A stretch of 64,000 bases of DNA from Minisyncoccia bacterium (GCA_041737125.1 JBGSSJ010000010.1:22354-86353); one strand, 5' to 3'. Positions 30,936 through 50,702 are shown, counted from the first letter of the stretch. Notes: generated from the sequence alone by a model not told the origin. A program made the numbers and translations.

Positions 30936-31049
30936 GATGATATTATAACATAATTACGAATTACTAATTAAGAATTACGAATCAAATACCACTTAGACTT
31001 AATTTAATGGGCTTAATTACTAATTATTCACTCGTAATTCGTAATTGTC

Positions 31050-32792
31050 TTAAACTACTTCTTGTTGATAACACTTTTCACAGTAGATTATCTCAGGTCG
31101 TTCGGGTGCATAACTTGTCTCAAACTCTACTTTGCACTTCCCTTCGTGATTATGCCCTTCTTTTTCACATATACACACTCTGTGCCAGAGCTTGAGAGGA
31201 TTTCTCTTATTAAAACGAGCTTTGTGTCTGCACTGATAACAACGTCTAGGTATGGGGATATTAAATCTTCTATAGAAAGTTAGTTCATCTTTCGTTATTC
31301 TGTATGCTTTTGTGCATCGCTCTGACCCAAACACAGAATCACAAGCTATTACTTCATTTATAAAATCATCATTTATATCAATAATAGAATCTGGAATATC
31401 TTTATTATTGATAGTTATATTATAATTTTTACCTTCTATCCCTCTATATAAATAACCTTGGTTAATTGTTTCTTCTTCAGATAATGGATAGAAATCATTG
31501 GCAATTGTCTCATTATAAGCAAATGGAGAAAGTTCTATTGGGAAAAACTCACCATATCTATACACCCTACCCTTTTTATCTACATAAGGCATATCTATCA
31601 TGTGTTGCTTGATCTTAGGCAATAGTTCAAAATATTCTTCCTTTGTATATTGCCTATTTAAAATACAATACGATTTATTACGCAAGCCAATACAACCAAA
31701 AACATTTTTGCAGCTATAGCAGTTAAAAGAATAGTCTACCTCTGTAGAGGAATAAACAACACTAGAAAATCTACAGAAAGAACCACCCACCCCAGAGTCG
31801 TTCATTTCAAAACCATTTTCAAGCATCCCACTAGCATTGCAGTAATAACAATCAAATATATTTTTAGCTCCCCAAAAAAGATGTTTGCAGTTCTTTACAT
31901 TATCAAGTGCATCAAAAACATTATAACTATCTACTACATTACTTAAATTATCTCCTGTCACATTATTACATTTTATAATAGTAGCGTATCTATGGATTGT
32001 ATTTAATTTAAGTATTTCAAACTGTTTCTTTAACTCCTCTACTGTGGTATAGCTTCCTAGATTATATTGTGTTAATTTTTCAAAATACTCTTCTTTTGAA
32101 TACTGTACGTTTTCAAATACATAACTTTTATTTCTTAAATTTGATGACATGAAGCAGTTAACACATCCATGGCAATCATATAAGAAATATGAATCTGTTG
32201 AATTATTTGTCTTTTCACAGTAAAAAAGGTTAGAAGAATTATTACAATATACATCTTCATAACAAAATTCACCCTTTTGGACTATATATAAATCGAGAGA
32301 ATCTTTTATTTCTAAAATAGAATCAGAGTACATTGTTCTTTCATTTTTCCAACATGCGGAAATAAGATAGCAATCATAGCTTTCCTCAGCCACATTACAG
32401 TATTCACTGTTTACTGCTTTTGAATTAGAAAGTGCTTGAAATGGTATAGCATCTCTAAGTTCTTTCCATTGAATAAAAAAGTCTCTAGAGAAGTCAAAAT
32501 CTTTCCCATAATCAAATGGATCCCATGCATCACTCCACCAATACTTCTGATCCACAATATTCATCTTTACGTCTGGGTGATAAATTGAGATTATTTCATC
32601 CCCAGTTACAGAATCTTTCCTTTTATATAAGGAGTGTGTATTCCTCCATGCAAAACGACGCTGGTGTGAACACCCAGGACAAAATGTCGGTGGTGGAACT
32701 TGCATCTTTTCATAGAAAGAAAAATCCTCAGGTTCAATAGTGAAGTTCTCTTTGCAGTTCTGACATGTTCTTTTTTCTTCTTGGTATTCCAT
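31050..32792 (-). CDS. Cysteine-rich zinc-ribbon-capped repeat protein, paralog A1 (uncharacterised family)
   Basis: 580 aa, ~45 Cys. N-terminus MEYQEEKRTCQNCKENFTIEPEDFSFYEKMQVPPPTFCPGCSHQRR (CxxC-x22-CxxC), two internal C-x-[NG]-C-x-N-C...LRNK.Y...N.QY.KEEY modules, C-terminus ...YAPERPEIIYCEKCYQQEVV. Confidence 0.85.
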   Translation of the reverse strand: MEYQEEKRTCQNCKENFTIEPEDFSFYEKMQVPPPTFCPGCSHQRRFAWRNTHSLYKRKDSVTGDEIISIYHPDVKMNIVDQKYWWSDAWDPFDYGKDFDFSRDFFIQWKELRDAIPFQALSNSKAVNSEYCNVAEESYDCYLISACWKNERTMYSDSILEIKDSLDLYIVQKGEFCYEDVYCNNSSNLFYCEKTNNSTDSYFLYDCHGCVNCFMSSNLRNKSYVFENVQYSKEEYFEKLTQYNLGSYTTVEELKKQFEILKLNTIHRYATIIKCNNVTGDNLSNVVDSYNVFDALDNVKNCKHLFWGAKNIFDCYYCNASGMLENGFEMNDSGVGGSFCRFSSVVYSSTEVDYSFNCYSCKNVFGCIGLRNKSYCILNRQYTKEEYFELLPKIKQHMIDMPYVDKKGRVYRYGEFFPIELSPFAYNETIANDFYPLSEEETINQGYLYRGIEGKNYNITINNKDIPDSIIDINDDFINEVIACDSVFGSERCTKAYRITKDELTFYRRFNIPIPRRCYQCRHKARFNKRNPLKLWHRVCICEKEGHNHEGKCKVEFETSYAPERPEIIYCEKCYQQEVV

Positions 32793-32816
32793 TCGTAATT
32801 ATTAATTCGTAATTTT

Positions 32817-34535
32817 TTAAATCACTTCTTGTTGATAACACTTCTCACAATATACTATCTCGGGTCTTTCGGGTGCAAAGCTCGTTTCGAATTCATTATT
32901 ACACCCTTCTTTCATACACGAACGGTGCCAAAGCTTCATAGGATTTTTAAGATTTATCCTTTCTATATATCTACAATTATGACACATATCAGGGGCTGGT
33001 ATGCCTAGCGACTTATAAATATTAAATTCATCGGGTAGCACTCGGAACGCAGTCGTACAATTATGGTTACACTCACCCCTATGCTTGCATTCGATAATAC
33101 CATGGATAATCTCTTCATCAGCAAAAGAATTATTATGTAAATCCTCTGCTGTAATAGTTATGCTGTATGACTTTTCTTCTTTATCTTTCCATGAATAACC
33201 AGAAGCAAGTGCAGACTCTTTATCGAGTGGATAATAATCTTGTAGAGGCGTCTCGTTGTAAGAAAATATAGAAAGCTCTGAGGGAAAGAAATCGCCATAC
33301 TTATAAACCCTACCTATCTTATCGACATACGGTAACTCATTCATATGACTTTTGATCTTTTCTATCATTTTAGAATATTCTTCCTTTTCGTATTGTTTAT
33401 TTAGAATGCAATACTTTTTATTACGTAATGAAATGGAACCGAAAGAATCACTCGTGGTATAGCAATTATCACAATACCATAGGTCGAAACAACTAGAATA
33501 ACAGAAGCATGAGAGATATATTTTGCTTGATTCTATCGGTGACATCGTATGGTAGCAAAGCTCACTAGATGGGTAACTATGAGAAAGGTCCATAGAATCT
33601 TTCGCTCCATTGCAGACGAAACCATACTTTGTATTCTCAGAATCAACAGCAGCATAGACTTCTTTGCAATTCCTAGAGTTTATAATACTATCCCCTGTGC
33701 AATTATCTGTGTTCTCTAGAATTGCGTATTTATTTATAGTTTTCTTTTTTAGATTTTCAAAAATTTCTTTACATGCATACAAACCACTAAAAGTAGATAA
33801 TTGTAAATCTTCTTTTATTTTAAAATAATCTTCCCTTGTGTATTGCTCATTGAAGATACAGTAATTCTTATTCCGGAGATTGGTACACCCGATGCAGTTC
33901 GAGCAGTTACGACAATTATATAAAAAGCTTGAGTCCAAACAACTATCACAATTCTGAGAGAAGCTAACCTTATAACAAGATTCACAATCAACAAGCATAT
34001 ATGACCACTCGGAGAACCTGGTCATCGAGCAAGATGAGCAATTCTTGTCCCTTGTACATTGTGGCCCCATGAAATAGCAATCTTCTGACTCTCCAATACT
34101 AAATGATAGATAAATATTTTTCACATTGGCTGCATGATTAGTGTACTCACTATTCACCTTATTGGAACCTATGAGATTAATGCGTGGAGCCTTGCTCGAT
34201 AACTCTTTCCACTGTTCGAAGAATGGACGAGTGAAATCATAATCCTGTCCATAATCCGCAGGATCCCAGCCATCGCCATAGAAGCAGTCTTTGCAGAAAA
34301 CTTTAAAAGTATTCCCTGTATGATACATGGAAATTATATTTGTATTACAAAGGTCGCAATTCCTTTTATACAAAGACATGTTGTTCCGGAAAGCGTACCT
34401 TAGCTTAAACCTACACTCCGGACAAAATGTCGGAGCAGGAACCTTTATCTTTTCATAGAAAGAAAAGTCCTCAGGTTCTATAGTGAAGTATATTTTACAG
34501 TTCTGACATATTTTGTTTTCCGTTTGATTAGTCAT
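32817..34535 (-). CDS. Cysteine-rich zinc-ribbon-capped repeat protein, paralog A2
   Basis: 572 aa; MTNQTENKICQNCKIYFTIEPEDFSFYEKIKVPAPTFCPECR ... CRNCSNCIGCTNLRNKNYCIFNEQYTREDY ... YAPERPEIVYCEKCYQQEVI. Confidence 0.85.
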   Translation of the reverse strand: MTNQTENKICQNCKIYFTIEPEDFSFYEKIKVPAPTFCPECRFKLRYAFRNNMSLYKRNCDLCNTNIISMYHTGNTFKVFCKDCFYGDGWDPADYGQDYDFTRPFFEQWKELSSKAPRINLIGSNKVNSEYTNHAANVKNIYLSFSIGESEDCYFMGPQCTRDKNCSSCSMTRFSEWSYMLVDCESCYKVSFSQNCDSCLDSSFLYNCRNCSNCIGCTNLRNKNYCIFNEQYTREDYFKIKEDLQLSTFSGLYACKEIFENLKKKTINKYAILENTDNCTGDSIINSRNCKEVYAAVDSENTKYGFVCNGAKDSMDLSHSYPSSELCYHTMSPIESSKIYLSCFCYSSCFDLWYCDNCYTTSDSFGSISLRNKKYCILNKQYEKEEYSKMIEKIKSHMNELPYVDKIGRVYKYGDFFPSELSIFSYNETPLQDYYPLDKESALASGYSWKDKEEKSYSITITAEDLHNNSFADEEIIHGIIECKHRGECNHNCTTAFRVLPDEFNIYKSLGIPAPDMCHNCRYIERINLKNPMKLWHRSCMKEGCNNEFETSFAPERPEIVYCEKCYQQEVI

Positions 34536-34572
34536 TTTTTATCTACTTTACTTAACTAAAGTCAACAATAAT

Positions 34573-36321
34573 CTATATAACTTCTTGTTGATAACACTTC
34601 TCACAATATACTATCTCAGACCTTTCTGGTGCATAAGTAGTCTCGAATTCTACTTGGCACTTTCCTTCATGATTATGACCTTCTTTATCACACATACAAA
34701 TACGATGCCAGAGCTTCATAGGATTCCTTTGCCTCAAACGAAGTTCGTGGCGACAATTAGGACAGTACTTGGGTAATGACAAATTCATCTGTTTGTAAAA
34801 AGCGAGCTCTTCTGGAAGAATTCTAAACGCAGTAGTACAAGTACTAGAAATATGTGCACACTCAATTATTTCACCTAGAATTGAATTGTCTACTTTTTTA
34901 ATATCTCTCTCTATATCTTTATTAAATATTGTAATTTTATATTCTTTATTTTCTTTTTCACGCCAGAGAAATCCTTCAGCCAATGCTTCTTCTTTATCTA
35001 TTGGAAAGATTTCTTGAACAATTGATTCGTTATAATTAAAAGGAGAAAATTCTATAGGAAAAAATTCTCCGTACTTATACTCAAGACCACGAGGAGTTAT
35101 GTACGGCATGGCGTTCATATGCTCAATAATCTTATTTCTTAATTTTATATATTCATCTTTTGAATATTGTTTATTAAATATACAATATTCTTTATTCCGA
35201 AGACCAATACAACCAAAAAGATTATTCGAACCGACACAATAATGGCAATACTCAAGAAAACGACCTTCTGGGAAACAACCATTTGAAAAAAGTACACGAT
35301 TAAGATTTGTACCGCTTTTAATTGTTTCATATACTTCGATCGCATTCTCACCATAGAATGAGTAATCATAACAATCTTTTACTGGACCAATGTAGCAAAG
35401 AAAACAATTCTTGGAATCCTCAACTCCATCTGATTGATAGATTGTCTTTGAATTTTTTGAATGGAGGACATAATCTCCAGTCACTTCAATATTTTGCTTA
35501 CCATGCATATATTTTTGAGGAAATTGAAGTGAGCTTTCTTTAATTTTTTGTTTTACGGCTTCTATGTCATTTAAGGCTTCAAGTAGAAGCTCATTTATCT
35601 TTTGCTCATAATCTTCTTTTAAATATTGTTCATTGTAAATACAATATTGTTTCTTTCGTAAATTAGTACAACCAAAACAATTCGAACAACCAACTAAATT
35701 TTTAGAAAAATAGATATCATATGAATCTTCGCTATCTATAGAGTAGAAAGCTCGGTAGCACTTCCTTATATTCACACATTCAAAGCAATGCTCACTTTTA
35801 TGTGTCATATAACAATCGAAACAATTTTTAATAAAAGAAACAGTATCGCAATAGTATGAATCTTCAACGACGTCTGCGTAGAAAACTAAATACGCATTCT
35901 TTAGTCGCCCTGCTCCATTACAATAAGGACTATTTATCATAGTGGGCTCTTCTACTCCGAGCGCCATCCAGGGTACTGTCTGAAGCATTTCTTTCATTTG
36001 TTCAAAAATTGGCCTGGAGAAATCAACATCTCGAGCATACATAAATGCATCCCACTCGTCACTCCACCAACATTTATTACAATAAACAGTAATTTGCTCG
36101 TCTGGATGGTACATAGTAAAAGCCTCTTTATTGCACAATCCACAAACTCGCTTATAGAGAGCACGTTTATTGTAGTGATAGAGCCGTCTCTTTAATCTAC
36201 ACTCCGGGCAAAATGTCGGTGGAGGAACTTTTATCTTTTCATAGAAAGAAAAGTCCTCAGGCTCAATAGTGAAGTTCTCTTTACAGTTCTGACACGCTCT
36301 ATTTTCTGTTTGATATTCCAT
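34573..36321 (-). CDS. Cysteine-rich zinc-ribbon-capped repeat protein, paralog A3
   Basis: 582 aa; MEYQTENRACQNCKENFTIEPEDFSFYEKIKVPPPTFCPECR ... GCSNCFGCTNLRKKQYCIYNEQYLKEDY ... YAPERSEIVYCEKCYQQEVI. Confidence 0.85.
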   Translation of the reverse strand: MEYQTENRACQNCKENFTIEPEDFSFYEKIKVPPPTFCPECRLKRRLYHYNKRALYKRVCGLCNKEAFTMYHPDEQITVYCNKCWWSDEWDAFMYARDVDFSRPIFEQMKEMLQTVPWMALGVEEPTMINSPYCNGAGRLKNAYLVFYADVVEDSYYCDTVSFIKNCFDCYMTHKSEHCFECVNIRKCYRAFYSIDSEDSYDIYFSKNLVGCSNCFGCTNLRKKQYCIYNEQYLKEDYEQKINELLLEALNDIEAVKQKIKESSLQFPQKYMHGKQNIEVTGDYVLHSKNSKTIYQSDGVEDSKNCFLCYIGPVKDCYDYSFYGENAIEVYETIKSGTNLNRVLFSNGCFPEGRFLEYCHYCVGSNNLFGCIGLRNKEYCIFNKQYSKDEYIKLRNKIIEHMNAMPYITPRGLEYKYGEFFPIEFSPFNYNESIVQEIFPIDKEEALAEGFLWREKENKEYKITIFNKDIERDIKKVDNSILGEIIECAHISSTCTTAFRILPEELAFYKQMNLSLPKYCPNCRHELRLRQRNPMKLWHRICMCDKEGHNHEGKCQVEFETTYAPERSEIVYCEKCYQQEVI

Positions 36322-36327
36322 TCTTTA

Positions 36328-36756: not shown

Positions 36757-36798
36757 ACTAATATGATAGTAATTATTATTTATATTAGCAAGAGGGAT

Positions 36799-37344
36799 CT
36801 AGTTGCGTGACATGTACTTGTAATTCACCAATAGTAGGATAGTGAATAGAGCAGTTGTCAGAGCCATAAGTGGCATAGTTATATAACCGAATTCATGCAC
36901 AAATACAGCAGCACAAGATACAACTCCTGGTCCGCCAGTCGCACAAGCAAGTGATGATGCTCCACCATTCTCTACGTAAATGTGGAATATAGACACGAGA
37001 GAATTTAGAACCGCAAGTACTATGGATTGATCAACGATTGCCCTGTCCCTCTTATATAACTCCATACCGAAAAGGATGACTTGAGGATATATGAATATGC
37101 GACTTATCCAACAAAGTTCACAAGGTGGGAACCCTACGACATTGGAATAGAATAGGCTTAGCAATGTAGCAGAGAGTGCAGTAATAAATCCAAAAATGAA
37201 AGTATACTTCTTAAAGAAGAGTAATAATGGATTCGTATGTGAACGGAAGAATAGTAGATTTAGAAGTAATCCAACTACAACAATCTGAAGGAATATCGTT
37301 CCCAGTGCAAGTATTTGATTAAGCGTTGTTACGTATGCAGGCAT
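36799..37344 (-). CDS. Disulfide bond formation protein B family (DsbB / BdbC-like)
   Basis: 4-TM protein with PCELCWISRIFIYPQ (compare BdbC C-x-L-C-W-Y-Q-R..YP and DsbB CVLCIYER) and a second Cys pair (C...SCAAV) in the second loop. VKOR was considered but the Cys order fits DsbB. Confidence 0.6.
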   Translation of the reverse strand: MPAYVTTLNQILALGTIFLQIVVVGLLLNLLFFRSHTNPLLLFFKKYTFIFGFITALSATLLSLFYSNVVGFPPCELCWISRIFIYPQVILFGMELYKRDRAIVDQSIVLAVLNSLVSIFHIYVENGGASSLACATGGPGVVSCAAVFVHEFGYITMPLMALTTALFTILLLVNYKYMSRN

Positions 37345-37345
37345 A

Positions 37346-37930
37346 TTATTGTGGAAGTGTGTAGCCTATTTGCTGTGCTAGGAATTCTAGTGATGTCTCA
37401 CCTGTGACACTAGAGCCTGATTCGAATTTCCATACTCCATCTTTCACCACAGGGTCGGTTAGACTTTTCACAGAGAAGGGATATCCTGGGAACCTCCAAG
37501 TCTTATAGAATTCTGATCCTATTTGAGCACATATTGGGTCTTCACCCTCTTTACCTGGCTTGATAGAACAAGTAACAGGTTCTGTACTTGAAGCTATGGT
37601 TATGCCGTTTGCGAATTTCCACGTAGGGAAGCTCTCAATCTTCTCATCTACGCATATTTGGACTGGCGATCTATTTGGATTTGAACATTCTACATATGGT
37701 AAATACTTCTTTGAACTACCGAATAATGCCTTCTCAGCTATGCAATGCGGACACCAGAATGCTCCATAGAATACTGCACCATTACTCTTAAGTGCCTTTG
37801 CAAAATCATCGTATTTACCAGGCTTCTGATTCTTATTCATAAAGACCCCAAGTCCAATAACGAATAATATAATAATAACTATAAATAAGATAAATTTAGT
37901 TTTCATAATGTGATTATACCAAAAAGCCAA
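37346..37930 (-). CDS. Membrane-anchored thioredoxin-fold thiol:disulfide oxidoreductase (DsbA / BdbD-like, CPHC active site)
   Basis: N-terminal TM then AVFYGAFWCPHCIAEK; CPHC is identical to the E. coli DsbA active site. Alternative start at MKTKFILF (37906). Confidence 0.75.
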   Translation of the reverse strand: MAFWYNHIMKTKFILFIVIIILFVIGLGVFMNKNQKPGKYDDFAKALKSNGAVFYGAFWCPHCIAEKALFGSSKKYLPYVECSNPNRSPVQICVDEKIESFPTWKFANGITIASSTEPVTCSIKPGKEGEDPICAQIGSEFYKTWRFPGYPFSVKSLTDPVVKDGVWKFESGSSVTGETSLEFLAQQIGYTLPQ

Positions 37931-39956
37931 GCTTTAACCAAAGTGACACAAATGGTGAAAGTATCAGGTTCCATATGACCTTTAGTATTTCTAATAATTT
38001 ATTAGTATCAGGTACGACATCACCTGCATTTGCTGTTAATATATTAATATCTTGTTCTTCCATTTCTTCTGGTTGTGTTTCTACTATAGCGACTTTATTT
38101 TCTATAATTTTCTTTATTGACTTTGGTGCTACTATTTCTTCTACTTCTGGTTTTTCAACTTCTGTAGCTAGAACAATAATGTCTTTCATTTCTTCCTTTA
38201 TGGGTTCTACTTTATCACTGCCTCCTTCCTCTTCTTTTTCTTCTCCTTCTTTGTCGAAGGATGACATTATGTCATTCCAAGATAGATGTAGTGCTCCCGG
38301 GATAGCATAAGATGTTGCCCAAATACGGTTATTTATATTATCTGTAACTTGTTCCATGCCTCCATCTGTCTGCTGGGCGAGAGCCATATAACTATCCCCT
38401 TTTGCGACTTCAGCATTCAATGAATAATTGGCAGATAGTGCTTGAAGTGCCCAGCTTGTACCATATGAGTTACCGAAGGATCCATCACTACCCTGCTTCC
38501 CCACTAGATAATTCTCTGCTTTTGTTATAGCATCTTCTAATCCGGACATATTTTTAAAATTCCGTAATGCCATAATCCCTGCTGAAGTAGTATCCATATT
38601 CTCCCAAGACCCATCATTTGATTGCTTAGAAATTAAATAAGAAATACTTTTCTCTATAATTTCATCATTTTTACTGTAGCCTGCATTTTTAAGAACTATT
38701 AATGCAAAAATGTCATCGTTGATAATAGATGTATCTCCAAACTGATTCCCATCAAAAGATGAAATTATTTTCTCTATGTAATTTATACTTGTTCCGTTGT
38801 AAGGATTAATATCAAGAGCCATCATCGCCATAGCATGACGTTCATTATCAGTAAGCATAGTAGAATTCATCGGGTTATTCTTCATATACTCTGCCACTCT
38901 CTCTTTTGCACTATTTGCCCTGTTACCGGCACTAGATAATGCTATCGCCACCCAATCTGTATAAAGCGCGTCGCCGAACGATCCATCAGTATTCTGTTTA
39001 CTAATTAAATACGAAAGTGCGTTATCTACGGAGAAAGTTTTCGTAGTTGATCCACCACCTCCACCAGAAGAAGGTGCACTTACAGTGACTTCATACGAAG
39101 GAAAATAATAATCTTCTGATATGCCGACGTTATAAGTACCCGCTTCTACAAATGTGAGAGTTGCCTCCCCGTTATCATTCACGGGGTGAGTAGACACTAT
39201 TATAGGATTCCATGCATTATCCGGATTTGTTTTTGTAATACCTACACTTACACCAGTACGAGTAATCCAAGTATTATCCGTATAATTATATGATTGTGCT
39301 TTTGCTATTATGCTCTCGCTTATATTAATAGTATTACTGCTAAGCTCAATACGATATGGGTTACCGAAATAAAGATTAATAAATTCCCCACCAGTAAGCA
39401 TTGTCGTATCGATACTAGTCCATGGACTAAAGCCCCCAACTACATACTGCCAGCTATCACAAAGTGGTTCCATTTCCCCAACAGTAATACACTTTAAATA
39501 AAAAGAGGAGAAAGAATCGTAATATTGTAAATTCGATATTGTAAATGCATCACTTGCTTGATCTAAATTATATAGAACTCCGAGCACACTCCTTGCATTT
39601 ACTTGATGTAGATTACCATTACTATCCACTATCTCTATCATTCCCTCCTCTGGTAAATCTATATCACCACTATATATTACAGTATCACCACTGCGCATAA
39701 AAAAACTTTCCTTTAAGGTTATCTCTTCTTCCTCTATAATTTCCTCCTCGTCTTCTTCTATAATTTCTTCTATTTCATCTTCAACAACTTCTTCTTCTGG
39801 AGTAACTATTTCATCTTGGGCATCTTCTTCTGTTATAGGTTCACTGACAATTACCATTTGCTCCTCTACAGCAAATTCTTCAGCAGAAATATTAAAGGTG
39901 GGTACGAATATTATAAACGTTAGAACTATTGATAATAAGACTTTGTACTTTTTCAT
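37914..39956 (-). CDS. Secreted protein with acidic linker, DUF4430-like segment and prenyltransferase / squalene-oxidase (alpha/alpha-toroid) repeats; putative transcobalamin-like alpha-domain protein
   Basis: Signal peptide MKKYKVLLSIVLTFIIFVPTFNISA; EEEIIEEEE acidic tract; repeats LISKQNTDGSFGD / LISKQSNDGSWEN / LVGKQGSDGSFGN (QxxDGSW/F-G toroid repeats); C-terminal hydrophobic tail. Confidence 0.6.
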   Translation of the reverse strand: MKKYKVLLSIVLTFIIFVPTFNISAEEFAVEEQMVIVSEPITEEDAQDEIVTPEEEVVEDEIEEIIEEDEEEIIEEEEITLKESFFMRSGDTVIYSGDIDLPEEGMIEIVDSNGNLHQVNARSVLGVLYNLDQASDAFTISNLQYYDSFSSFYLKCITVGEMEPLCDSWQYVVGGFSPWTSIDTTMLTGGEFINLYFGNPYRIELSSNTINISESIIAKAQSYNYTDNTWITRTGVSVGITKTNPDNAWNPIIVSTHPVNDNGEATLTFVEAGTYNVGISEDYYFPSYEVTVSAPSSGGGGGSTTKTFSVDNALSYLISKQNTDGSFGDALYTDWVAIALSSAGNRANSAKERVAEYMKNNPMNSTMLTDNERHAMAMMALDINPYNGTSINYIEKIISSFDGNQFGDTSIINDDIFALIVLKNAGYSKNDEIIEKSISYLISKQSNDGSWENMDTTSAGIMALRNFKNMSGLEDAITKAENYLVGKQGSDGSFGNSYGTSWALQALSANYSLNAEVAKGDSYMALAQQTDGGMEQVTDNINNRIWATSYAIPGALHLSWNDIMSSFDKEGEEKEEEGGSDKVEPIKEEMKDIIVLATEVEKPEVEEIVAPKSIKKIIENKVAIVETQPEEMEEQDINILTANAGDVVPDTNKLLEILKVIWNLILSPFVSLWLKLGFLV

Positions 39957-39966
39957 AGATTTATTA

Positions 39967-40503
39967 TTAATTCATAAGACCTTCCCTCTTCCATTCGACT
40001 ACATCTTTATCTTTTAATACATACTGCGATACACCAATTTCAGCCTTTTTATCATTCACATAATAAATCCAATAAGCGCCCGACTCTCCTTTTACTCCAT
40101 TGATACTATCGACAAAGTAACCCATTCCTCCAAATTCTCTCCCTTCAAATGTAAAATTTTTACTCACATCACTCTTAACATTGTTCATTAAATCATAAAC
40201 GCTTTTATCTTTCTCAATATTTGTTTCGTAAATTTTGCCATCAACAATCAAACTTGCTTTTATTTCTTCGTTCACATCTTTATTTATTTCTTGCTTTTTC
40301 TCTACTTGTGGGCTCGGAGATATATTTTCATTCTTTATTGCAATATTTTCTTTTTCTAATTCAGGAGATGATATTACGTTCTCTTTATTATTAACTTCCG
40401 GAGCAAGAACCACTTTATCTTTCTTTACATACGGATAAACATAAAAAGCAATCAAGATAAGCAAGGAAACTATTATTATAATCTTATTTTTGATGTTTTT
40501 CAT
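39967..40503 (-). CDS. Membrane-anchored DUF4430-like (transcobalamin beta-domain-like) protein
   Basis: TM anchor, then C-terminus ...GAYWIYYVNDKKAEIGVSQYVLKDKDVVEWK typical of DUF4430. Start set at MKNIKNK (40503), because the upstream part of the ORF-finder ORF is occupied by a cobalamin riboswitch with terminator. Confidence 0.55.
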   Translation of the reverse strand: MKNIKNKIIIIVSLLILIAFYVYPYVKKDKVVLAPEVNNKENVISSPELEKENIAIKNENISPSPQVEKKQEINKDVNEEIKASLIVDGKIYETNIEKDKSVYDLMNNVKSDVSKNFTFEGREFGGMGYFVDSINGVKGESGAYWIYYVNDKKAEIGVSQYVLKDKDVVEWKREGLMN

Positions 40504-40506
40504 AAT

Positions 40507-40680: not shown

Positions 40681-40687
40681 AAATACA

Positions 40688-41221
40688 CTAAACTCTTCTA
40701 AGCTTCGAGACCAGGACTGGAATACTTAACTTGCTCTCTTTCCTTTCTTTTGCTAACCACATTTCTATCACTGGTGAGAGAACTATAGCAAATGCCACAT
40801 TACCTAGCAAGTGAAGAGCAGTGAATGGTATCTGACCTATGAGTGCACCCATGAATGATTGTCCGAAGAATAATGGCCCTAGGGTGAGTCCTGTAAATGC
40901 ATCATATAGAATAGTCGCTATGATTGCATACTTCACGTAGTTGGCGCGTCCTTTCCTATTCTTAAAGAAAAAGCTTGCACCTATTCCCACCATTCCATAA
41001 GCAAGTGCTGTGACAAGAGTCCAGACGCCGATACCTGCGGTTACAGAATCATATATGACAATACTCCCTGCTCCAAAGATGAAAGCCAAAAGAGGGCCAT
41101 AAGCTTTCCCGAAAGGCATAGACACAGCCATAATAGGCTCTATATTTGGAGCCCGGAATGGCAAAAGGCGCATAAGAAGCACGGCTACAAAGGCAATTGT
41201 GTATTTAACAGATTTTCTCAT
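40688..41221 (-). CDS. Small polytopic membrane protein, ECF-transporter S-component-like (putative cobalamin / corrinoid uptake)
   Basis: 177 aa, ~6 TM, Arg/Lys-rich N-terminus and no Cys; size and topology resemble ECF S components. Assignment is from context (B12 riboswitch, NrdJ), not from motifs. Confidence 0.35.
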   Translation of the reverse strand: MRKSVKYTIAFVAVLLMRLLPFRAPNIEPIMAVSMPFGKAYGPLLAFIFGAGSIVIYDSVTAGIGVWTLVTALAYGMVGIGASFFFKNRKGRANYVKYAIIATILYDAFTGLTLGPLFFGQSFMGALIGQIPFTALHLLGNVAFAIVLSPVIEMWLAKERKESKLSIPVLVSKLRRV

Positions 41222-41267
41222 TCGTATTTTTTAATTTGTAATTATTAATTCGTAATTCTTAATTGTC

Positions 41268-43760: not shown

Positions 43761-43825
43761 TGTACAAATTCATAAATTTTTCTATAAATTGAAAAGAAAA
43801 GAAAATCAAAAATTTTTACTAGATT

Positions 43826-45541
43826 TTAGAGAACTTCCTGCTGGTAACAACTCTCACAGTATACCCTTTCCGGCCTATCTGGGGCATATGTAGTCTCGAA
43901 TTCTCTCCCACAACCATTACTACATAGTCTTTTATATAGTTTCATTGGATTTCGGTAGACTAAACGCTGGTAATGACGACAGTTCGGACAGTAGTGAGGT
44001 AATGGTAGTGAATTTTGCCTATAGAACAGAAGCTCTTCCTTTGTAAGCTTGAAAGCATTGGTACATTGATATTTATAATCACCTTTATTCGGGCATTCTA
44101 GGATATCATTTAGTATGTCATCTGTTACATTTTCTATACTATTAGGTAAAGTTTCAAAATTTTTTGTCGGAACGTAATTTCTTACTTCTGGCTCTTTCCA
44201 ATTAAGACCCAAGTCTATTATCTGTTCTTTTGTTTTAGGAAAGTAATCATGAGCCATAGTTTCATTATATCCAAATGGGCACATAAAATACGGGAAAAAG
44301 TCTCCATATGAAAATACTCTTCCCATGGAATCTTTCAATGGTAAATCCACCATATGCTTTCTCAGTAATGGTGATATTTTTAAATATTCTTCTTTAGAAT
44401 ATTGTTTATTTAAAATACAGTATTTAGCATTTTTCAAACCAACACAACCGAAACAGTCGGAGCAATTACGACAGTTCAAAGAGTGTTCCATGTTTGTAGA
44501 ATTAAAACAAACTACACATCCTATTTGATTACTTGAATCCTGACTACCAGAAATATTTTCATATTGCAATTCTCCATTTAAAACCCAACAACAATCTTTC
44601 AAATCTTTCGTATTAACAACTCTAAATGTATTAGAAATATTTTCAGATTTAAAAACATCAAAAGAATTATTTATGTCTTTTGAATTATTAATATGATCGC
44701 CTTTTACATTTACTGAATTCAAATTTTTTGCAAACTTAAATATTGCTTTTTCTTTAATTAAAGAAAATTCATTCCGTGCATTATTAAAACCAGAAAAAGT
44801 ATTCAACTTTAACTCTTTTACTTTTTCTAAATATTCGTCCTTACTTAATTGTTTATTTTTAAAGAAATAAGATTTATTTCTGAGGTTTGTTGATAAACAA
44901 CAGTTTGAACAGTTTGAACAATCGTACAGGAAATAAGAATCTATATTTTTATTTGAATCAATCACGAAATGACAATTATAATTTTCTAAACAATCTATAT
45001 TCCAAGAACATCTATCAATATTTCCACAATAAAGACAATCAAGTGAATTCTTCGAGTTATCAACATTTTCAGAGAATGAAATATCTTCTGAATTTACCAA
45101 AGAAAATGCTAAATATATATTCTTAGAATTAGCTACCGAATTAGAATAATCACAATTTATAACTGTACCACCAAGCTTATACTGAAAAATACGAGGTTGA
45201 ATATAGAATAATTCATTTATCTGATTAAATATCGGAATACTCAAATCAATTTCTTTTTGATACATAAATGGATCCCAATTATCCCCCATCCAACACTCTC
45301 CACACATTACAGGAGCTCCATCCTCTTTATAAACTGATAATAATGACTTAGAGCAAAGACTACAAGTACGTTTATAAAACGACCTATGATTTCTCCAGCA
45401 CATTCTCCTTATCATCCTGCACTCTGGGCAAAACGTAGGCGGTGGAACTTTAATTTTTTCATAGAAAGAAAAGTCTTCTAATTCAATAATGAAGTTCTCT
45501 TTGCAATTTTGACACGTTCGGTTTTCTACTTGATTTTCCAT
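43826..45541 (-). CDS. Cysteine-rich zinc-ribbon-capped repeat protein, paralog B1
   Basis: 571 aa; MENQVENRTCQNCKENFIIELEDFSFYEKIKVPPPTFCPECR ... CSNCSNCCLSTNLRNKSYFFKNKQLSKDEY ... YAPDRPERVYCESCYQQEVL. Confidence 0.85.
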   Translation of the reverse strand: MENQVENRTCQNCKENFIIELEDFSFYEKIKVPPPTFCPECRMIRRMCWRNHRSFYKRTCSLCSKSLLSVYKEDGAPVMCGECWMGDNWDPFMYQKEIDLSIPIFNQINELFYIQPRIFQYKLGGTVINCDYSNSVANSKNIYLAFSLVNSEDISFSENVDNSKNSLDCLYCGNIDRCSWNIDCLENYNCHFVIDSNKNIDSYFLYDCSNCSNCCLSTNLRNKSYFFKNKQLSKDEYLEKVKELKLNTFSGFNNARNEFSLIKEKAIFKFAKNLNSVNVKGDHINNSKDINNSFDVFKSENISNTFRVVNTKDLKDCCWVLNGELQYENISGSQDSSNQIGCVVCFNSTNMEHSLNCRNCSDCFGCVGLKNAKYCILNKQYSKEEYLKISPLLRKHMVDLPLKDSMGRVFSYGDFFPYFMCPFGYNETMAHDYFPKTKEQIIDLGLNWKEPEVRNYVPTKNFETLPNSIENVTDDILNDILECPNKGDYKYQCTNAFKLTKEELLFYRQNSLPLPHYCPNCRHYQRLVYRNPMKLYKRLCSNGCGREFETTYAPDRPERVYCESCYQQEVL

Positions 45542-45572
45542 TTGTAATTATTAATTCGTAATTTATAATTTT

Positions 45573-47288
45573 CTACAGTACTTCTTTCTGATAACATTTC
45601 TCGCAATAAACTCTCTCTTCTCTATCTGGGGCATATGTAGTCTGAAATTCTCTCCCACAACCATTACTACATAGTCTTTTATACAATTTCATCGGGTTTC
45701 TGTACGCTAGACGCTGGTAATGGCGACAATTTGGGCAGTAATGAGGTAGAGGCAAGCTCTTTTGTTTATAGAATTGCAACTCAGTAGGCATGATACGGAA
45801 AGCAGTGGTGCATTGTGTCAGCTGGTTACCATTATTTGGACAGGATATTGTTTGATTTAGTATATCTTCATTAACATCCGTAATATTATCTGACAAATTA
45901 TCACTATCAATTGTAATTTTATAATCTTTATTTTCTTTTTCTTTCCATGGATAACCAAGTTCTGTAGCTTTCTCTAAACTTATTGGGAAGTAATCTAAAT
46001 TTACAGTTTCATTATATCCAAAAGGAGAGAACTCAAATGGGTAGAATTCTCCATAGACATAAACTCTACCCTTACTATCTATATAAGGATTATCAATCAT
46101 GAATTTTCTTAATTTAGAAACAAGGGCCTCATATTCTTCTTTTTCATATTGTTTATTCAAGATACAATATTTAGCATTTTTTAAACCAATACAACCAAAG
46201 CAGTCGGAGCAATTCTTACAGTACAAGGAGTACTCCATATTTTTAGAAGACAAACAAAGTATTGAACCAATTTGATTATATGAGTTACTGCTTGCTGACA
46301 ATGATTCGTAAGCAATTTCACCAGTAAGTATATATGAGCAATCGAATATATCATTTGATTTTATTATTCTAGTTGAATAACGAATATTCTCTGCAGTATT
46401 TGATATGTCATATGAATGAAAAACATCTTTAGAATTAAAAATAAAATCTCCCGTAACATTCTGGCTTGATACTATGTTTGCATATTTATGAATTGCATCT
46501 TTATAAATAAAATCAAATTCTTCTTTAGTTTTATTGAAACCGGAGTATGTTTCGAGTTTTAGTTCACCAAGAGCCTTTTGATATTCTTCTTTAGTTAGTT
46601 TGATATTCTTGAATACATACTGCTGGTTCCTTAAACTAGAAGACAGGCAACAGTTCTGACAATTCACACAATCATAAAGGAAAGATGAATCAATACAAGA
46701 ACTGGAAGATAATATAAAGTGTGAGTTGTAATTCTTATCAGATAGCATGTTCCATGTGCATTGATCGAGATCATAGCTTGCAAAGGAGTCTATCGTATTA
46801 CGAGATCTATCTATGCTTTCAGAATACATTATGTCTTCACAATCTATGACTGAAAAACATAAATATACATTTTTACAATTAACTACTGAGTTACCATAAT
46901 CGCTATTAATAACATTCCCAATCCTATACTGGTATATGCGAGGCTGCTTCCTGAATAATGAATACAATTGTGAGAAGAAACTTGTAGTCCAATCTATTTC
47001 CATTCCATGCTCGAATTGATCCCAGCCATCTCCGTTATAACACTCTATACAATAGACAGGTACCCCGTCGTCTTTATACATTGATATTAAATTTTTACTA
47101 CAAAGACCACAACTTCTTTTGTATAAAGATCTATTATTCCTCCAAATCATTCTCCTTATCATCCTACACTCCGGGCAAAAGGTAGGTGGTGGAACCTTTA
47201 TCTTTTCATAGAAAGAAAAATCTTCTGGTTGTATAGTAAAACTCCCTTTGCAATTCTGACATATTCGGTTTTCCGTTTGATTTTCCAT
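45573..47288 (-). CDS. Cysteine-rich zinc-ribbon-capped repeat protein, paralog B2
   Basis: Start set at MENQTENRICQNCKGSFTIQPEDFSFYEKIKVPPPTFCPECR (47288); the ORF-finder start at 47372 would overlap B3 by 74 nt. Ends YAPDREERVYCEKCYQKEVL. Confidence 0.85.
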   Translation of the reverse strand: MENQTENRICQNCKGSFTIQPEDFSFYEKIKVPPPTFCPECRMIRRMIWRNNRSLYKRSCGLCSKNLISMYKDDGVPVYCIECYNGDGWDQFEHGMEIDWTTSFFSQLYSLFRKQPRIYQYRIGNVINSDYGNSVVNCKNVYLCFSVIDCEDIMYSESIDRSRNTIDSFASYDLDQCTWNMLSDKNYNSHFILSSSSCIDSSFLYDCVNCQNCCLSSSLRNQQYVFKNIKLTKEEYQKALGELKLETYSGFNKTKEEFDFIYKDAIHKYANIVSSQNVTGDFIFNSKDVFHSYDISNTAENIRYSTRIIKSNDIFDCSYILTGEIAYESLSASSNSYNQIGSILCLSSKNMEYSLYCKNCSDCFGCIGLKNAKYCILNKQYEKEEYEALVSKLRKFMIDNPYIDSKGRVYVYGEFYPFEFSPFGYNETVNLDYFPISLEKATELGYPWKEKENKDYKITIDSDNLSDNITDVNEDILNQTISCPNNGNQLTQCTTAFRIMPTELQFYKQKSLPLPHYCPNCRHYQRLAYRNPMKLYKRLCSNGCGREFQTTYAPDREERVYCEKCYQKEVL

Positions 47289-47298
47289 TCGTAATTTT

Positions 47299-49020
47299 CT
47301 ATAGGACTTCTTGCTGATAACAGTGTTCACAGTATACCCTCTCCGGCCTGTCTGGAACATAACTTGTTTCAAATTTATTATTACACCCTTCTTTCATACA
47401 ATTCCTCTGCCAAAGTTTAGCAGGTAAAATTTTAGCAAATCGTTCGTAGTGTCTGCAGTTTGAACATTTGGTAGGGAGTGGAATATTGTTTTTCTTATAA
47501 AAATCAAATTCATCTTTTGTAATTTTAAAGGCGATCGTGCACCTATGGTCGCACTTTCCTTCATGTTCACAACCTAGGACCTCTTTTAATATAGATTCAT
47601 CCACATCATTTATATGATCAGGTATACTATTTGAATTTATTGTTATGTGGAAATCTTTACTTTCGTGGTCTTTCCATTTGTAACCCTTTCTAATTGCTTC
47701 CTCTTTAGTTATCGGCATTAAATCATAAGCTGGTGTTTCGTTATAAGCTAAAGCAGAAATTTCAATAGGGAAAAATTCACCATACTTATATTCGCATCCC
47801 GCTTTATCATAATAAGGATCTGTGTTCATTTGATTTACTATATCAGCCCGAATTTTATTAAAATCTTCTTTTGAGTAAACTTTGTTTAAAATAGAATATT
47901 CTTTATTACGTAAACCAATGCATCCAAAAATATTGGAACAAGAAATACAAGAATCAGTATATTCTGCATTCTGAACATTACCCATGGCAGCATAAGAAAA
48001 TTTCACATTATAATCATCTTTTGCTCCAGTACTATATTCATACATGAGTTCTGATTTGCCAGCATAATCTGTGTCCATATTATCTTTAAATAAGAAAGCT
48101 CTGTAACAATTTTTCCCATTTTCTGCGTCATGAATATCAAAACAATTTTTACAATTATTCACGTTGGACAAATTATTGCCCGTTGAGTCCACTGATCTGA
48201 AAATATTTGCAAATCTATGTATGGCATTTTGTTTCATTCCTTCAAATTCCTCTATAATTCCTTTTCGAAAGTTCCTACTACCAAAATCAAACTTCTTCAG
48301 TTCTTTCAAATAATCTTCTTTTGTGTATTGAACATTAAAAATACAATATTCTTTGTTGCGTAAATTTGTGCATAAAATACAATTTGAACAATTTGCGCAA
48401 TCAAATAAAAAATATGAGTCAATGCAATTTCGTGACAAAACTAAATGCTGAGAATTATAGTTCTTCTCCCCTTCTACAACTTCATAACATCTATCACAAT
48501 CCACTAAATTATATGAATCAAATATATTAAAACAAGAATCTATGCCTTTTGAATAGAAAACATTTTCTGAACCTAATACTACTGATACTGATAGATAAAC
48601 ATTTTTACACTCTCCAACCATATTCGAATAATCTGAATCCGTCACGTTTCTTTGAAATAAGGCTAGGTGTGGAACTTTACTCTGTAACTCTTTAAATTGA
48701 TGAAAGAATGATTTACTAAAATCATAATCTACACCATGAGTAGAACCGTCCCACTTATCAGAATACCAACATTCTCTACAATATACAGGAAAAGGTGAAT
48801 CTGCCCCATACATTGCAATAATATTACTATTACATAGATCACAGACTCTTTTATATAAACCTCTTTCATTTCGCCACACCATTCGTCTAATACGCCTGCA
48901 ATCCGGGCAGAATGTAGGTGGTGGAACTTTTATCTTCTCATAGAAAGAAAAGTCTTCTGGTTCTATAGTGAAGTCCCTTTTACAATTCTGGCATGTTCGG
49001 TTTTCTGTTTGATGTTCCAT
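47299..49020 (-). CDS. Cysteine-rich zinc-ribbon-capped repeat protein, paralog B3
   Basis: Start set at MEHQTENRTCQNCKRDFTIEPEDFSFYEKIKVPPPTFCPDCR (49020); ends YVPDRPERVYCEHCYQQEVL. Confidence 0.85.
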   Translation of the reverse strand: MEHQTENRTCQNCKRDFTIEPEDFSFYEKIKVPPPTFCPDCRRIRRMVWRNERGLYKRVCDLCNSNIIAMYGADSPFPVYCRECWYSDKWDGSTHGVDYDFSKSFFHQFKELQSKVPHLALFQRNVTDSDYSNMVGECKNVYLSVSVVLGSENVFYSKGIDSCFNIFDSYNLVDCDRCYEVVEGEKNYNSQHLVLSRNCIDSYFLFDCANCSNCILCTNLRNKEYCIFNVQYTKEDYLKELKKFDFGSRNFRKGIIEEFEGMKQNAIHRFANIFRSVDSTGNNLSNVNNCKNCFDIHDAENGKNCYRAFLFKDNMDTDYAGKSELMYEYSTGAKDDYNVKFSYAAMGNVQNAEYTDSCISCSNIFGCIGLRNKEYSILNKVYSKEDFNKIRADIVNQMNTDPYYDKAGCEYKYGEFFPIEISALAYNETPAYDLMPITKEEAIRKGYKWKDHESKDFHITINSNSIPDHINDVDESILKEVLGCEHEGKCDHRCTIAFKITKDEFDFYKKNNIPLPTKCSNCRHYERFAKILPAKLWQRNCMKEGCNNKFETSYVPDRPERVYCEHCYQQEVL

Positions 49021-49031
49021 TCGTAATTGTT

Positions 49032-50702
49032 TTATATAACCTGTTGCTGATAACACTTCTCGCAATAAACTATTTCTTTCCTTTCTGGTGAATAATTAGT
49101 CTTTATATCTTTACTACAGAAATCACATTTCCTGTCCCAGAATTTGTATGGTCCACGACGACGAACTCGATCTCTATGACGACAGTAGAAGCAGGCTCTT
49201 GGTATTGGTAAATGCATCTTCTTGTAGAAGAGTAATTCCTGCTCTGTGATTTTATAATTCCTCTCGCAATTTATGCAAGCGAGTATTTCCTTTGTAATAC
49301 TATCTGGCACATCAGCAATATGATCTGGGATATCTTCTGTTTTTAATGTCTCCTTCCCTTTTGTAACCTGTACATCATCCTCCCATCTGTAACCTTGGGC
49401 TACGGCTTCCTCTTTTGTCAAAGGAAAGTTATCTTGAGCTATTGTTTCATTATATGCAAACGGTGCAATAGACGGAGGCATCATAAGGCCATATAAATTT
49501 TGGGATTTTAATTCCTCTACAATATGCTCTTTTAGTCTTTCATATTCTTCTTTTAAGTATTCTTTGTTCAGAATTGCATATTTGGCATTCTTGATAGCAT
49601 CACAACCTATAGTGCTAGTATTATACTTAACATCAAATCCATAAACTACGTCCTGGGAATTCTCAGCCCAAAATGAACCGATTATATTACTAGAGTATCC
49701 GGTGGCGACGACTTCAAGTAAATTTTCTCCATTAGTACCATAACCTATTGTACCTAAAGAATCTTTTATAACTTTAGATGAAAATAGATATCTACAATTC
49801 TCTGCTTTTGAAACTTCAAATGAATCTTTAACTGATTTACATTCATAAAGATAGTCACCCTCTGAGTCCACCGCCTTTATATTATTATTTTCTCTATGAG
49901 GGTGTTGTAAGCAGAAATATTCAAAAATTTTAATCATTTCTTCTTTTTTAGAATAACTACCAGTATAATCTTCTAACCTATTGGAATATTCCTCGGGAGT
50001 AAGTTGCTCGTTGAACCAACAATTACTTTTATTCCTCAAATTCACACAACCGAAACAATTAGTGAGTCCACTACCATTTAGAATGAAGTGTGAATCAACA
50101 CAACTTATAATATTTTTACTATAAGTGACACCTGATGACTTCTGAATATTTACACTATCGTAACAATTTTCTATGTCGACACCGAAATAAATATCAGAAG
50201 AAAATTTACCATTTTTTATCCCTCGAGAATACAGCAGTTCCTCTGCTGGACTTGTATTGAAAACTAGGTAACAATTTTTACAACCTCCTGCCATATTTAC
50301 ATATTCGCTATTTATATTCTGACCTTCAGCTGAAGATATGCCCAAACAATTCTTTGGTACTTTTCTTAATAGCTCCCCCATTTGCTCGACAAAAGGTTTA
50401 TTAGGGTCGTAGTCAATAGCATAATCTTTAGCATCCCATTTATCAGAATAGAAACATTCATAACAAAAAACTACATAGGGAGATTTTGGGTTATAAATAG
50501 ATATTATATTTTTCTGGCACATATCACACTTGCGCCCCGAATAAAGAGTCATTTCATTCCTCCACATTGCCCTAATTTTAAACCTGCAGTCGGGGCACAC
50601 ATGTGGCGCTGGAACTTTCATCTTCTCATAGAAAGAGAAGTCATCGGCTTCGATAATGAAATTAATCTTGCAGTTCTGGCAGCTCCTTGTCTCCAAATTC
50701 AT
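49032..50702 (-). CDS. Cysteine-rich zinc-ribbon-capped repeat protein, paralog B4 (most divergent)
   Basis: 556 aa; MNLETRSCQNCKINFIIEADDFSFYEKMKVPAPHVCPDCR ... YSPERKEIVYCEKCYQQQVI. Confidence 0.85.
   Translation of the reverse strand: MNLETRSCQNCKINFIIEADDFSFYEKMKVPAPHVCPDCRFKIRAMWRNEMTLYSGRKCDMCQKNIISIYNPKSPYVVFCYECFYSDKWDAKDYAIDYDPNKPFVEQMGELLRKVPKNCLGISSAEGQNINSEYVNMAGGCKNCYLVFNTSPAEELLYSRGIKNGKFSSDIYFGVDIENCYDSVNIQKSSGVTYSKNIISCVDSHFILNGSGLTNCFGCVNLRNKSNCWFNEQLTPEEYSNRLEDYTGSYSKKEEMIKIFEYFCLQHPHRENNNIKAVDSEGDYLYECKSVKDSFEVSKAENCRYLFSSKVIKDSLGTIGYGTNGENLLEVVATGYSSNIIGSFWAENSQDVVYGFDVKYNTSTIGCDAIKNAKYAILNKEYLKEEYERLKEHIVEELKSQNLYGLMMPPSIAPFAYNETIAQDNFPLTKEEAVAQGYRWEDDVQVTKGKETLKTEDIPDHIADVPDSITKEILACINCERNYKITEQELLFYKKMHLPIPRACFYCRHRDRVRRRGPYKFWDRKCDFCSKDIKTNYSPERKEIVYCEKCYQQQVI

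Follow-up and report, generated by a model that had tools for sequence, protein, structure and literature searches.

Conserved ends and divergent interiors in tandem arrays of cysteine-rich paralogs from a Minisyncoccia bacterium: evidence for concerted evolution of the first zinc finger

The locus and its seven paralogs

A 64,000-nucleotide stretch of DNA from a Minisyncoccia bacterium (GCA_041737125.1, JBGSSJ010000010.1:22354-86353), referred to here as the window and numbered from its first letter, contains seven paralogous genes for cysteine-rich proteins, A to G, whose ends are much better conserved than their interiors. According to open reading frame (ORF) calls and translation, all seven are encoded on the minus strand in the same orientation and have 556 to 582 codons each (Table 1). 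They are split into two tandem clusters, transcribed in the order C-B-A (cluster 1) and G-F-E-D (cluster 2), with intergenic spacers of 10 to 37 nucleotides within the clusters. The repeat period of about 1.75 kb proposed in the initial annotation of this DNA was borne out by start-to-start spacings of 1.68 to 1.79 kb, and the coordinates given there for the 5' ends all end on start codons. Every copy is a full-length open frame with its own start codon. The open frame of paralog E extends upstream to a TTG at 47372; its start was picked by alignment to the N-terminus of the family. In paralog F, too, the open frame continues upstream, in this case to a TTG at 49065. The same double zinc-finger module, about 85 amino acids long, is found at the beginning and at the end of each protein (the N- and C-terminal modules of C are 33% identical over 87 residues, E = 3e-16).

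Identity along the genes and the protein-level baseline

The sliding-window identity check called for in the initial annotation showed that divergence along the genes is not uniform: the ends are high, and interior segments of 102 nucleotides have a mean identity of 0.51 with a maximum of 0.62. The ends do differ from the middle by far more than chance would allow, even though the description of the ends as near-identical was overstated, since the 5' ends reach 88% at most. In the codon alignment, the first 102 to 123 aligned nucleotides have a mean identity of 0.81 (range 0.72-0.88) over the 15 pairs among A to F. The 80 to 90% identity attributed to the first 100 nucleotides of every paralog is thus somewhat too high for these six genes and does not hold for G, whose 5' block is only 0.65-0.68 identical to theirs. 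The 41-nucleotide 5' motif given in the initial annotation matched A to F with at most three mismatches (6 hits versus 0 in 100 shuffles), with no match in G. In the 123 nucleotides that follow the 5' block the identity falls to 0.52, which places the boundary at about codon 41. The last 70 nucleotides, said to be likewise conserved, are indeed above the interior (mean 0.73, range 0.64-0.85 over the last 72 nucleotides), but the 37-nucleotide 3' motif given there is exact in B and C only. Amino acid identity tracks nucleotide identity along the genes, at 0.71-0.84 at the ends and approximately 0.2-0.5 in most interior segments.

How much of this similarity would be expected without any exchange of DNA was estimated from a collection of the family that covers 80 loci and comprises 215 full-length members. 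Where the interiors of two genes from different loci are 35-45% identical, the first 41 codons have 0.676 nucleotide and 0.66 amino acid identity, and the last 15 codons 0.69 nucleotide and 0.72 amino acid identity, while their synonymous codon identity is at chance (0.50 at the 5' end and 0.47 at the 3' end). Since this level of nucleotide identity (0.68-0.69) is found even between unrelated genomes whose synonymous sites match no more often than by chance, most of the similarity of the ends is due to purifying selection on the protein. This selection on the terminal modules is strong and family-wide, and gives about 68% nucleotide identity at both ends. It could be argued that nothing else is needed and that no DNA has been exchanged between the paralogs, because amino acid identity mirrors nucleotide identity, unrelated genomes attain this level at both ends, and the length of most exact runs in the window agrees with a null model of amino acid sequence and codon usage. 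For the 3' ends of D, E, F, and G, selection alone would indeed account for the whole pattern. For the 5' block it is contradicted by the synonymous sites.

Synonymous codons and the nearest relatives of the 5' block

In the interior of the seven genes, the rate at which synonymous positions use the same codon is 0.51 versus 0.49 expected from codon usage (0.47-0.53 between paralogs), and the synonymous sites are thus saturated. In codons 1-41 of A to F, in contrast, the same codon was used in 325 of 491 cases (0.66 versus 0.50 expected; z = 5.7, 0 of 3000 resamplings). The excess is found within A/B/C (0.81 versus 0.50, z = 5.8) and within D/E/F (0.67 versus 0.50, z = 3.3), whereas any pair with G is at the null (expected 0.50-0.52; z = -1.2 to +1.0). 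The two clusters also have fixed synonymous differences in this block, namely AAC/AAT, CCT/CCA, GAG/GAA, CCG/CCT, and AGA/CGA (A/B/C versus D/E/F). Furthermore, A to F share a derived leader that is two residues longer, ME.Q.EN..C (ME.Q.EN..CQNCK), which is absent from G and from the relatives of C in other genomes.

Grouped by their 5' blocks, the genes sort by genome; grouped by their interiors, they sort with relatives from other genomes. This is clearest for paralog C, the interior of which is 79% and 73% identical in amino acids to its relatives in the loci L001 (GCA_965656375.1) and L003, respectively, versus 36-41% to the other paralogs in the window; at the nucleotide level, the corresponding values are 0.72-0.77 and 0.49-0.54. 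In the 5' block the order is reversed: C has an identity of 0.81-0.88 with A, B, D, E, and F versus 0.68 (L001) and 0.79 (L003) with these relatives, and the bootstrap support for this reversal is 0.993-0.9995. The nearest neighbor of each 5' block was determined among 214 family members. It was another paralog of the window with a bootstrap frequency of 86-96% for A, C, D, E, and F, of 61% for B, and of 1% for G. For the interior, the nearest neighbor was a window paralog in 0% of bootstraps, except for the D-E pair, which is the closest pair in the window with 56% amino acid identity in the interior. External relatives of A, D/E, F, and G have 50-66% identity in the interior and are closer than the window paralogs outside the D-E pair.

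A quite different history, in which a recent tandem duplication was followed by very rapid, perhaps diversifying, divergence of the interiors so that only the 5' block keeps the true recent ancestry, would suit tandem co-oriented arrays, and D and E, which are mutual nearest neighbors in the interior, do resemble a younger pair. However, the interior synonymous sites are at the random level, which would not be expected from fast protein evolution, and C, F, G, A, and D/E have closer interior relatives in other genomes than in the window outside the D-E pair. Such a history is barely credible.

The same pattern in other genomes

Among the 215 members, synonymous identity of pairs from the same locus exceeds that of pairs from different loci by 0.09 to 0.11 at codons 1-40. 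Over most of the interior the difference amounts to 0 to 0.03, single 10-codon bins reaching 0.05 to 0.09, and interior blocks that are as strongly conserved as the 5' block do not have a same-locus synonymous excess family-wide. Of the same-locus pairs, 6-11% have segments of 75 nucleotides with at least 85% identity at the 5' end, 2.7% have them at the 3' end, and less than 2% elsewhere; neither this analysis nor the synonymous profile revealed an excess of interior mosaicism in the family. A 5'-block identity of at least 0.85 was found in 15 of 334 same-locus pairs versus 15 of 22561 different-locus pairs, and 21 of the 52 other multi-copy loci contain at least one pair with a 5'-block identity of at least 0.80. 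All same-locus pairs (334/334) are co-oriented, and homogenization did not depend on distance within about 20 kb. Some tracts are nearly perfect. For instance, a tract of about 145 nucleotides at L077 has three mismatches and stops just past the second CxxC, with 52% amino acid identity in the interior of the pair; a tract of about 140 nucleotides at L060 has a single mismatch, with 36% in the interior; and a tract at L010 spans about 150 nucleotides, with the 3' tail of this pair also at 0.93 identity. The starts of the tracts differ among genomes, from position -12 to about codon 12.

A physical marker is provided by L007 (GCA_023255625.1), where three of five paralogs have the same GC-rich insertion of 166-202 nucleotides followed by an identical new 5' block at an identical site, while each of these copies keeps its own, different, older 5' remnant upstream. 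This is beyond what codon preference or protein convergence could bring about and indicates that DNA was copied between the 5' ends of paralogs. Together with the synonymous excess, the grouping of the 5' blocks by genome, the interior blocks that are equally conserved and have no excess, and the nearly perfect tracts of 140-150 nucleotides, it makes purifying selection as the sole cause of the 5' pattern unlikely.

These observations also bear on the question of whether the nucleotides of the 5' block are themselves under selection in each genome, for example as a shared translation-initiation region, as mRNA structure, or as the target of a trans-acting antisense RNA by which all paralogs would be regulated together, in which case conversion would at most supply variants. 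The homogenized stretch begins at or slightly before the start codon, the excess is limited to the 5' end rather than found in all conserved blocks, and A, D, E, and F share a AATTACGA motif abutting the ATG. However, B and C have the homogenized block without the upstream motif, the starts of the tracts vary between genomes, and the wholesale copying at L007 included the insertion. In addition, synonymous identity between different loci is at chance in this block, which excludes a universal RNA element. Judging from the sequences alone, selection on a genome-specific nucleotide feature would seem a little less probable still than selection on the protein alone.

The 3' end and the cassette-like geometry

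An equal part for the 3' end, as implied in the initial annotation, is not borne out. In the last 14 codons a synonymous excess was found only in A/B/C (0.79, z = 3.0) and not in D/E/F, and the nearest 3' neighbor of the window paralogs is usually a gene from another genome. Family-wide, the same-locus synonymous excess in the last 25 or so codons is 0.04 to 0.09. The evidence for homogenization at the 3' end is weak, with a family-wide signal several-fold below that of the 5' end, and the idea of two equivalent recombination handles is not supported.

This bears on cassette shuffling as in antigenic variation, for which the conserved ends were considered a suitable geometry in the initial annotation. 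In a programmed system of this kind, the ends would be used as handles to shuffle the middles among copies or into an expression site. The geometry does fit, with conserved ends, a variable middle, and tandem direct repeats about every 1.75 kb, and the copy number per locus varies from 1 to 10 among related genomes, although a varying copy number is also expected as normal for tandem direct repeats. However, the seven copies are complete genes with start codons of their own, with no silent or truncated donors; their products are probably cytoplasmic, with neither a signal peptide nor a membrane segment predicted; and their interiors are saturated at synonymous sites, have stable relatives (50-79% amino acid identity) in other genomes, and lack an excess of mosaics. 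The 3' handle is barely homogenized, the ten flanking genes scanned include no recombinase or reverse transcriptase, and there were no PADLOC or PHROG hits. There is no sign of a programmed diversification system, and we consider one very improbable here. A site-specific shufflon and a diversity-generating retroelement were rejected on the same scan of ten flanking genes for a recombinase or reverse transcriptase.

Exchange at the 5' end and the points against it

With a probability of roughly 0.8, we attribute the pattern to two layers: selection on the terminal fingers, and short-tract exchange at the 5' end among paralogs of the same genome, that is, concerted evolution. The genome-specific homogenization of the first 120-150 nucleotides at the DNA level recurs in many lineages, and the interiors are old and stably inherited; from this pattern we infer gene conversion or template switching as the mechanism. 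Short-tract, non-reciprocal recombination of either kind would repeatedly carry this stretch, whose coding content corresponds exactly to the first finger, from one paralog to another in the same genome. It could be seeded in the conserved DFSFYEK-VPPPTFCP core, where constraint on the protein would keep exact runs of about 17-32 nucleotides, and each conversion would restore identity, so that the 5' block would remain in concerted evolution long after the interiors had diverged to saturation. Such exchange would have lifted A to F to 72-88% and yielded the genome-specific leader and the cluster-specific synonymous codons, while G would have stayed outside. The exchanges in the window are not recent, because no pair is above 88% identity. 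The 5' finger may be favored over equally conserved interior blocks through the length of the block, its position at the start of the gene, or selection for a common N-terminal module. Of the original suggestions, concerted evolution is supported for the 5' end, where gene conversion would be its mechanism, on account of the synonymous excess, of 5' blocks that group by genome, and of the recurrence of the pattern in the family. Recombination as the main source of the conserved ends is not supported, since the baseline of their identity is set by selection on the protein.

Several observations weigh against this explanation. The 5' identity in the window is only 72-88%. The longest exact in-register run at the 5' end is 32 nucleotides for any pair, and most runs are 17-23 nucleotides, as predicted by amino acid conservation and the codon usage of the genome; only those of B-C, with 32 nucleotides in the 5' block and 38 in the 3' tail, and of B-E, with 29 nucleotides, are clearly above the null, with A-E being marginal (23 nucleotides, p = 0.03). 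Exchange in the window must therefore be old or rare. Close external relatives (73-79%) were found for C only, those of A, D/E, F, and G being at 50-66%, and for B no external relative is clearly closer in the interior than the window paralogs. The genome-specific selection on nucleotides considered above also retains a small probability.

The proteins and their family

The cysteines C10, C13, C38, C41, C573, and C576 are invariant. C520 and C523 do not vary in the paralogs of the window, and their conservation among 59 homologs is at least 90%. A CxxC...CxxC ligand pattern with a knuckle and helix arrangement is present in the alignment and in an AlphaFold2 model of paralog C (predicted local distance difference test, pLDDT, 84.4; predicted template modeling score 0.86). 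In this model, residues 1-48 form a compact finger (pLDDT 88-95) made up of two strands (6-9, 16-19) and two helices (21-29, 39-48). The middle of C (residues 120-480, approximately) is predicted to consist of two similar sub-domains with short strands every 12 residues (e.g., 191-228 and 285-310), each closing with a conserved FGC.GLRNK.YCI.N.QY.KEEY motif followed by long helices; the cysteines in this middle part are conserved only in part.

The termini resemble known zinc-finger families below threshold, with best scores of 14.5-20.6 bits against Pfam zf_Tbcl (PF13451) and zf_Tbcl_2 (PF23477), for which the gathering cut-offs are 24-27, and 14.5-19.7 bits against TIGR04272 (CxxC-x17-CxxC), for which the cut-off is 36. 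Some homologs have precomputed PF23477 or PF13451 hits. Scans of the paralogs against Pfam, NCBIfam, PADLOC, and PHROGs gave nothing above threshold, and the middle of about 400 amino acids had no family or fold match in Pfam, NCBIfam, a PDB profile search, or Foldseek. The PDB sequence-profile search returned only a marginal LIM-like hit (E = 0.72), Foldseek of the model against the PDB returned nothing below E = 4, and against BFVD only short zinc-ribbon stretches were matched. The N-termini are hydrophilic (maximum Kyte-Doolittle 19-residue mean of at most 1.03), and neither a membrane segment nor a signal peptide was predicted in the window paralogs. On these sequence features and the cysteine-rich, zinc-finger-like termini, the proteins are probably cytoplasmic.

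There are at least 4,900 homologs, all annotated as hypothetical, and among the matches listed every one with a named source is from Patescibacteria; 2,298 representatives of 50%-identity clusters were found at E <= 1e-30. At least 573 stretches were confirmed in GTDB species genomes, mostly labeled as Nomura-, Staskawicz-, and Liptonbacteria, Minisyncoccia, and other Paceibacteria, with some titles of metagenome-assembled genomes naming Saccharibacteria. The family appears to be an old, Paceibacteria-specific one of soluble multi-zinc-finger proteins of about 575 amino acids. Literature searches returned nothing on it or on gene conversion in bacteria of the candidate phyla radiation. No second assembly of the source organism was found in the collections searched, where the closest homolog of C is 78% identical, and exact-protein look-ups for paralog D and P0001 matched no contigs.

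Spacers, flanking genes, and the L007 insertion

The B/A spacer is similar to the E/D spacer, and the F/E spacer to the G/F spacer (Table 1). Conversion tracts spanning a whole gene junction, that is, a 3' end, the spacer, and the next 5' end, were considered and rejected as a general rule, because the tracts in other genomes mostly begin at or after the start codon. The 10-mer AATTACGAAT occurs 9 times in the window versus 0.24 expected. It directly adjoins the starts of A, E, and F, lies inside the 31-nucleotide spacer upstream of D, and is also found about 27 nucleotides upstream of the gene for an energy-coupling factor (ECF) S component. Inverted copies are present in the 114-nucleotide spacer between A and pilB, where they could form a hairpin or an operator. 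There is no obvious Shine-Dalgarno sequence at any of the seven paralogs, and a scan for promoters and terminators was at the level of shuffled sequence and uninformative. Past the stop codon of A (30996-31049), the junction motif is repeated (GACAATTACGAATTACGA) and is followed by GTGAATAATTAG..., which is weakly similar to the start of a paralog (ATGGAAAATCAA...); this may be what is left of another, decayed copy.

The clusters lie about 7.5 kb apart, and the ordinary genes between them encode CutA1, DsbB, a squalene-hopene-cyclase-repeat/cobalamin-binding-like protein, a DUF4430 protein, the ECF S component, and a class II ribonucleotide reductase. The outer flanks contain type IV pilus genes on one side and genes for DUF1361, MscL, and a P-type ATPase on the other. 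A scan of ten flanking genes covered those just named between the clusters and the genes for a protein with no Pfam hit, DUF1361, the P-type ATPase, and a pilin-like protein, and no recombinase, reverse transcriptase, or mobile-element gene was found among them. Directly downstream of cluster 1 and CutA1, at 36799-37930, the DsbB-family gene adjoins that for the protein without a Pfam hit, which is membrane-anchored and contains cysteines; a link of these neighbors to the cysteine-rich paralogs may be a coincidence. The genes at 37914-43580, for a surface protein with squalene-hopene-cyclase-type repeats and a cobalamin-binding-like hit, DUF4430, the ECF S component, and the B12-dependent class II ribonucleotide reductase, look like a cobalamin-related set.

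The insertion at L007 lies in an AT-rich array and folds as two strong hairpins (-60.4 kcal/mol, z = -4.7). It had no Rfam match, and Rfam gave only chance-level hits on the array. It is confined to L007 among 84 loci compared. The insertion brings a replacement gene start and leaves about 47 nucleotides of the old start upstream as a short open frame, and it may have originated as a miniature mobile element with the conserved 5' block as its target, or from a single insertion event that conversion then spread. The gene annotated at 5988-7589 of this locus starts with MRRYAWRNE and lacks the N-terminal finger, while the frame upstream (from 5856) encodes the homogenized finger; 5' ends in this family can thus be mis-annotated.

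Table 1. Positions of the paralogs, their terminal blocks, and other features (window coordinates unless another locus is given)
Feature	Position	Strand	Remarks
Paralog A	31050..32792	-	580 amino acids; last gene of cluster 1; ORF and translation; in family alignment
Paralog B	32817..34535	-	572 amino acids; ORF and translation; in family alignment
Paralog C	34573..36321	-	582 amino acids; relatives in L001 and L003; AlphaFold2 model made
Paralog D	43826..45541	-	571 amino acids; last gene of cluster 2
Paralog E	45573..47288	-	571 amino acids from ATG at 47288
Paralog F	47299..49020	-	573 amino acids from ATG at 49020
Paralog G	49032..50702	-	556 amino acids; first gene of cluster 2; outside the homogenized 5' block
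5' block of A	32670..32792	-	codons 1-41; N-terminal treble-clef-like zinc finger CxxC...CPxC
5' block of B	34413..34535	-	exact runs of 32 nucleotides with C and 29 nucleotides with E
5' block of C	36199..36321	-	81-88% to A, B, D, E, F; 68% to L001, 79% to L003
5' block of D	45419..45541	-	motif match, alignment
5' block of E	47166..47288	-	motif match, alignment
5' block of F	48898..49020	-	motif match, alignment
3' tail of A	31050..31094	-	0.83-0.86 nucleotide identity to B and C
3' tail of B	32817..32861	-	last 14 codons and stop; exact run of 37-38 nucleotides with C
3' tail of C	34573..34617	-	exact run of 37-38 nucleotides with B
B/A spacer	32793..32816	-	24 nucleotides; two AATTACGAAT copies; similar to E/D spacer
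E/D spacer	45542..45572	-	31 nucleotides; carries AATTACGAAT
F/E spacer	47289..47298	-	10 nucleotides; AAAATTACGA
G/F spacer	49021..49031	-	11 nucleotides; AACAATTACGA
AATTACGAAT sites	30952-30982, 31037-31046, 32791-32814, 41248-41257, 45554-45563, 47287-47296, 49019-49028		
L007 GC-rich insertion	3866-3983, 5744-5861, 9883-10000		GCA_023255625.1
TrwB/VirD4/HerA-like ATPase genes	L001 6441-7916, 17849-20149; L014 6069-8171; L083 5530-7092		

Discussion

The arrays described here have the geometry of antigenic variation without its behavior, and the tempting reading of them is corrected accordingly. What they do exhibit is recurrent concerted evolution limited to a single domain of about 41 codons, in a large uncharacterized family from Patescibacteria, organisms with very small genomes and no genetic tools. 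As a practical consequence, phylogenies and orthology calls for this family must leave out the first 45 or so codons. Leads to its function are offered by the N-terminal finger and by the VirD4-like ATPases that are often encoded next to the arrays.

One or two genes for such TrwB/VirD4/HerA-like (DUF87) ATPases are located within 6 kb of the arrays at 29 of 81 loci, and the longer form of the ATPase (approximately 690-770 amino acids) has a clear match to zf_Tbcl_2 (E = 3.6e-14), the kind of finger with which the array proteins begin and end. In the 64-kb window, no such ATPase was detected by tblastn. It is conceivable, if doubtful, that the N-terminal finger is a genome-specific docking or addressing module common to the members of an array, with the ATPase as a candidate partner. 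If this were true, conversion would be retained by selection, keeping diversified paralogs matched to one co-evolving partner, and the arrays would represent a combinatorial set of cargo proteins or adaptors with a common handle and diversified middles.

Conserved flanks around variable segments, with recombination between repeated copies, are known from Neisseria pilE/pilS, Anaplasma msp2, and Borrelia vlsE. Those systems have one expression site and truncated silent donors, and their surface-exposed products contain hypervariable segments with turnover inside a lineage. Of these hallmarks (silent donors, a surface product, hypervariable turnover), none was found in the array of the window. 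In geometry, the closest analog is the bab family of Helicobacter pylori, in which regions of homology at the N- and C-termini of the paralogs babA, babB, and babC enclose a variable middle that is conserved for each paralog, and in which conversion was found 60-240 bp from the start codon (PMC4552749, which cites Pride & Blaser 2002 for the concerted evolution of bab elements). However, the bab genes encode outer-membrane adhesins, their end regions are more than 90% identical, and conversion among them alters a host-facing phenotype and causes phase variation, whereas the window paralogs are apparently cytoplasmic, with ends at 72-88%, a 3' end that is hardly involved, and no indication of phenotypic switching. 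In process, the closest analog is the domain-limited conversion between mtrA-1 and mtrA-2 of methanogens, ancient paralogs in which one domain has long been homogenized by gene conversion while the rest diverged, recurring in separate lineages (PMC4632066). The mtrA case involves two genes in a conserved operon with a known function; here, the arrays comprise 2-10 genes and the homogenized domain is a zinc finger of about 41 codons at the extreme 5' end. The arrays add an uncharacterized family of Paceibacteria to the known cases of concerted evolution that is limited to a domain.

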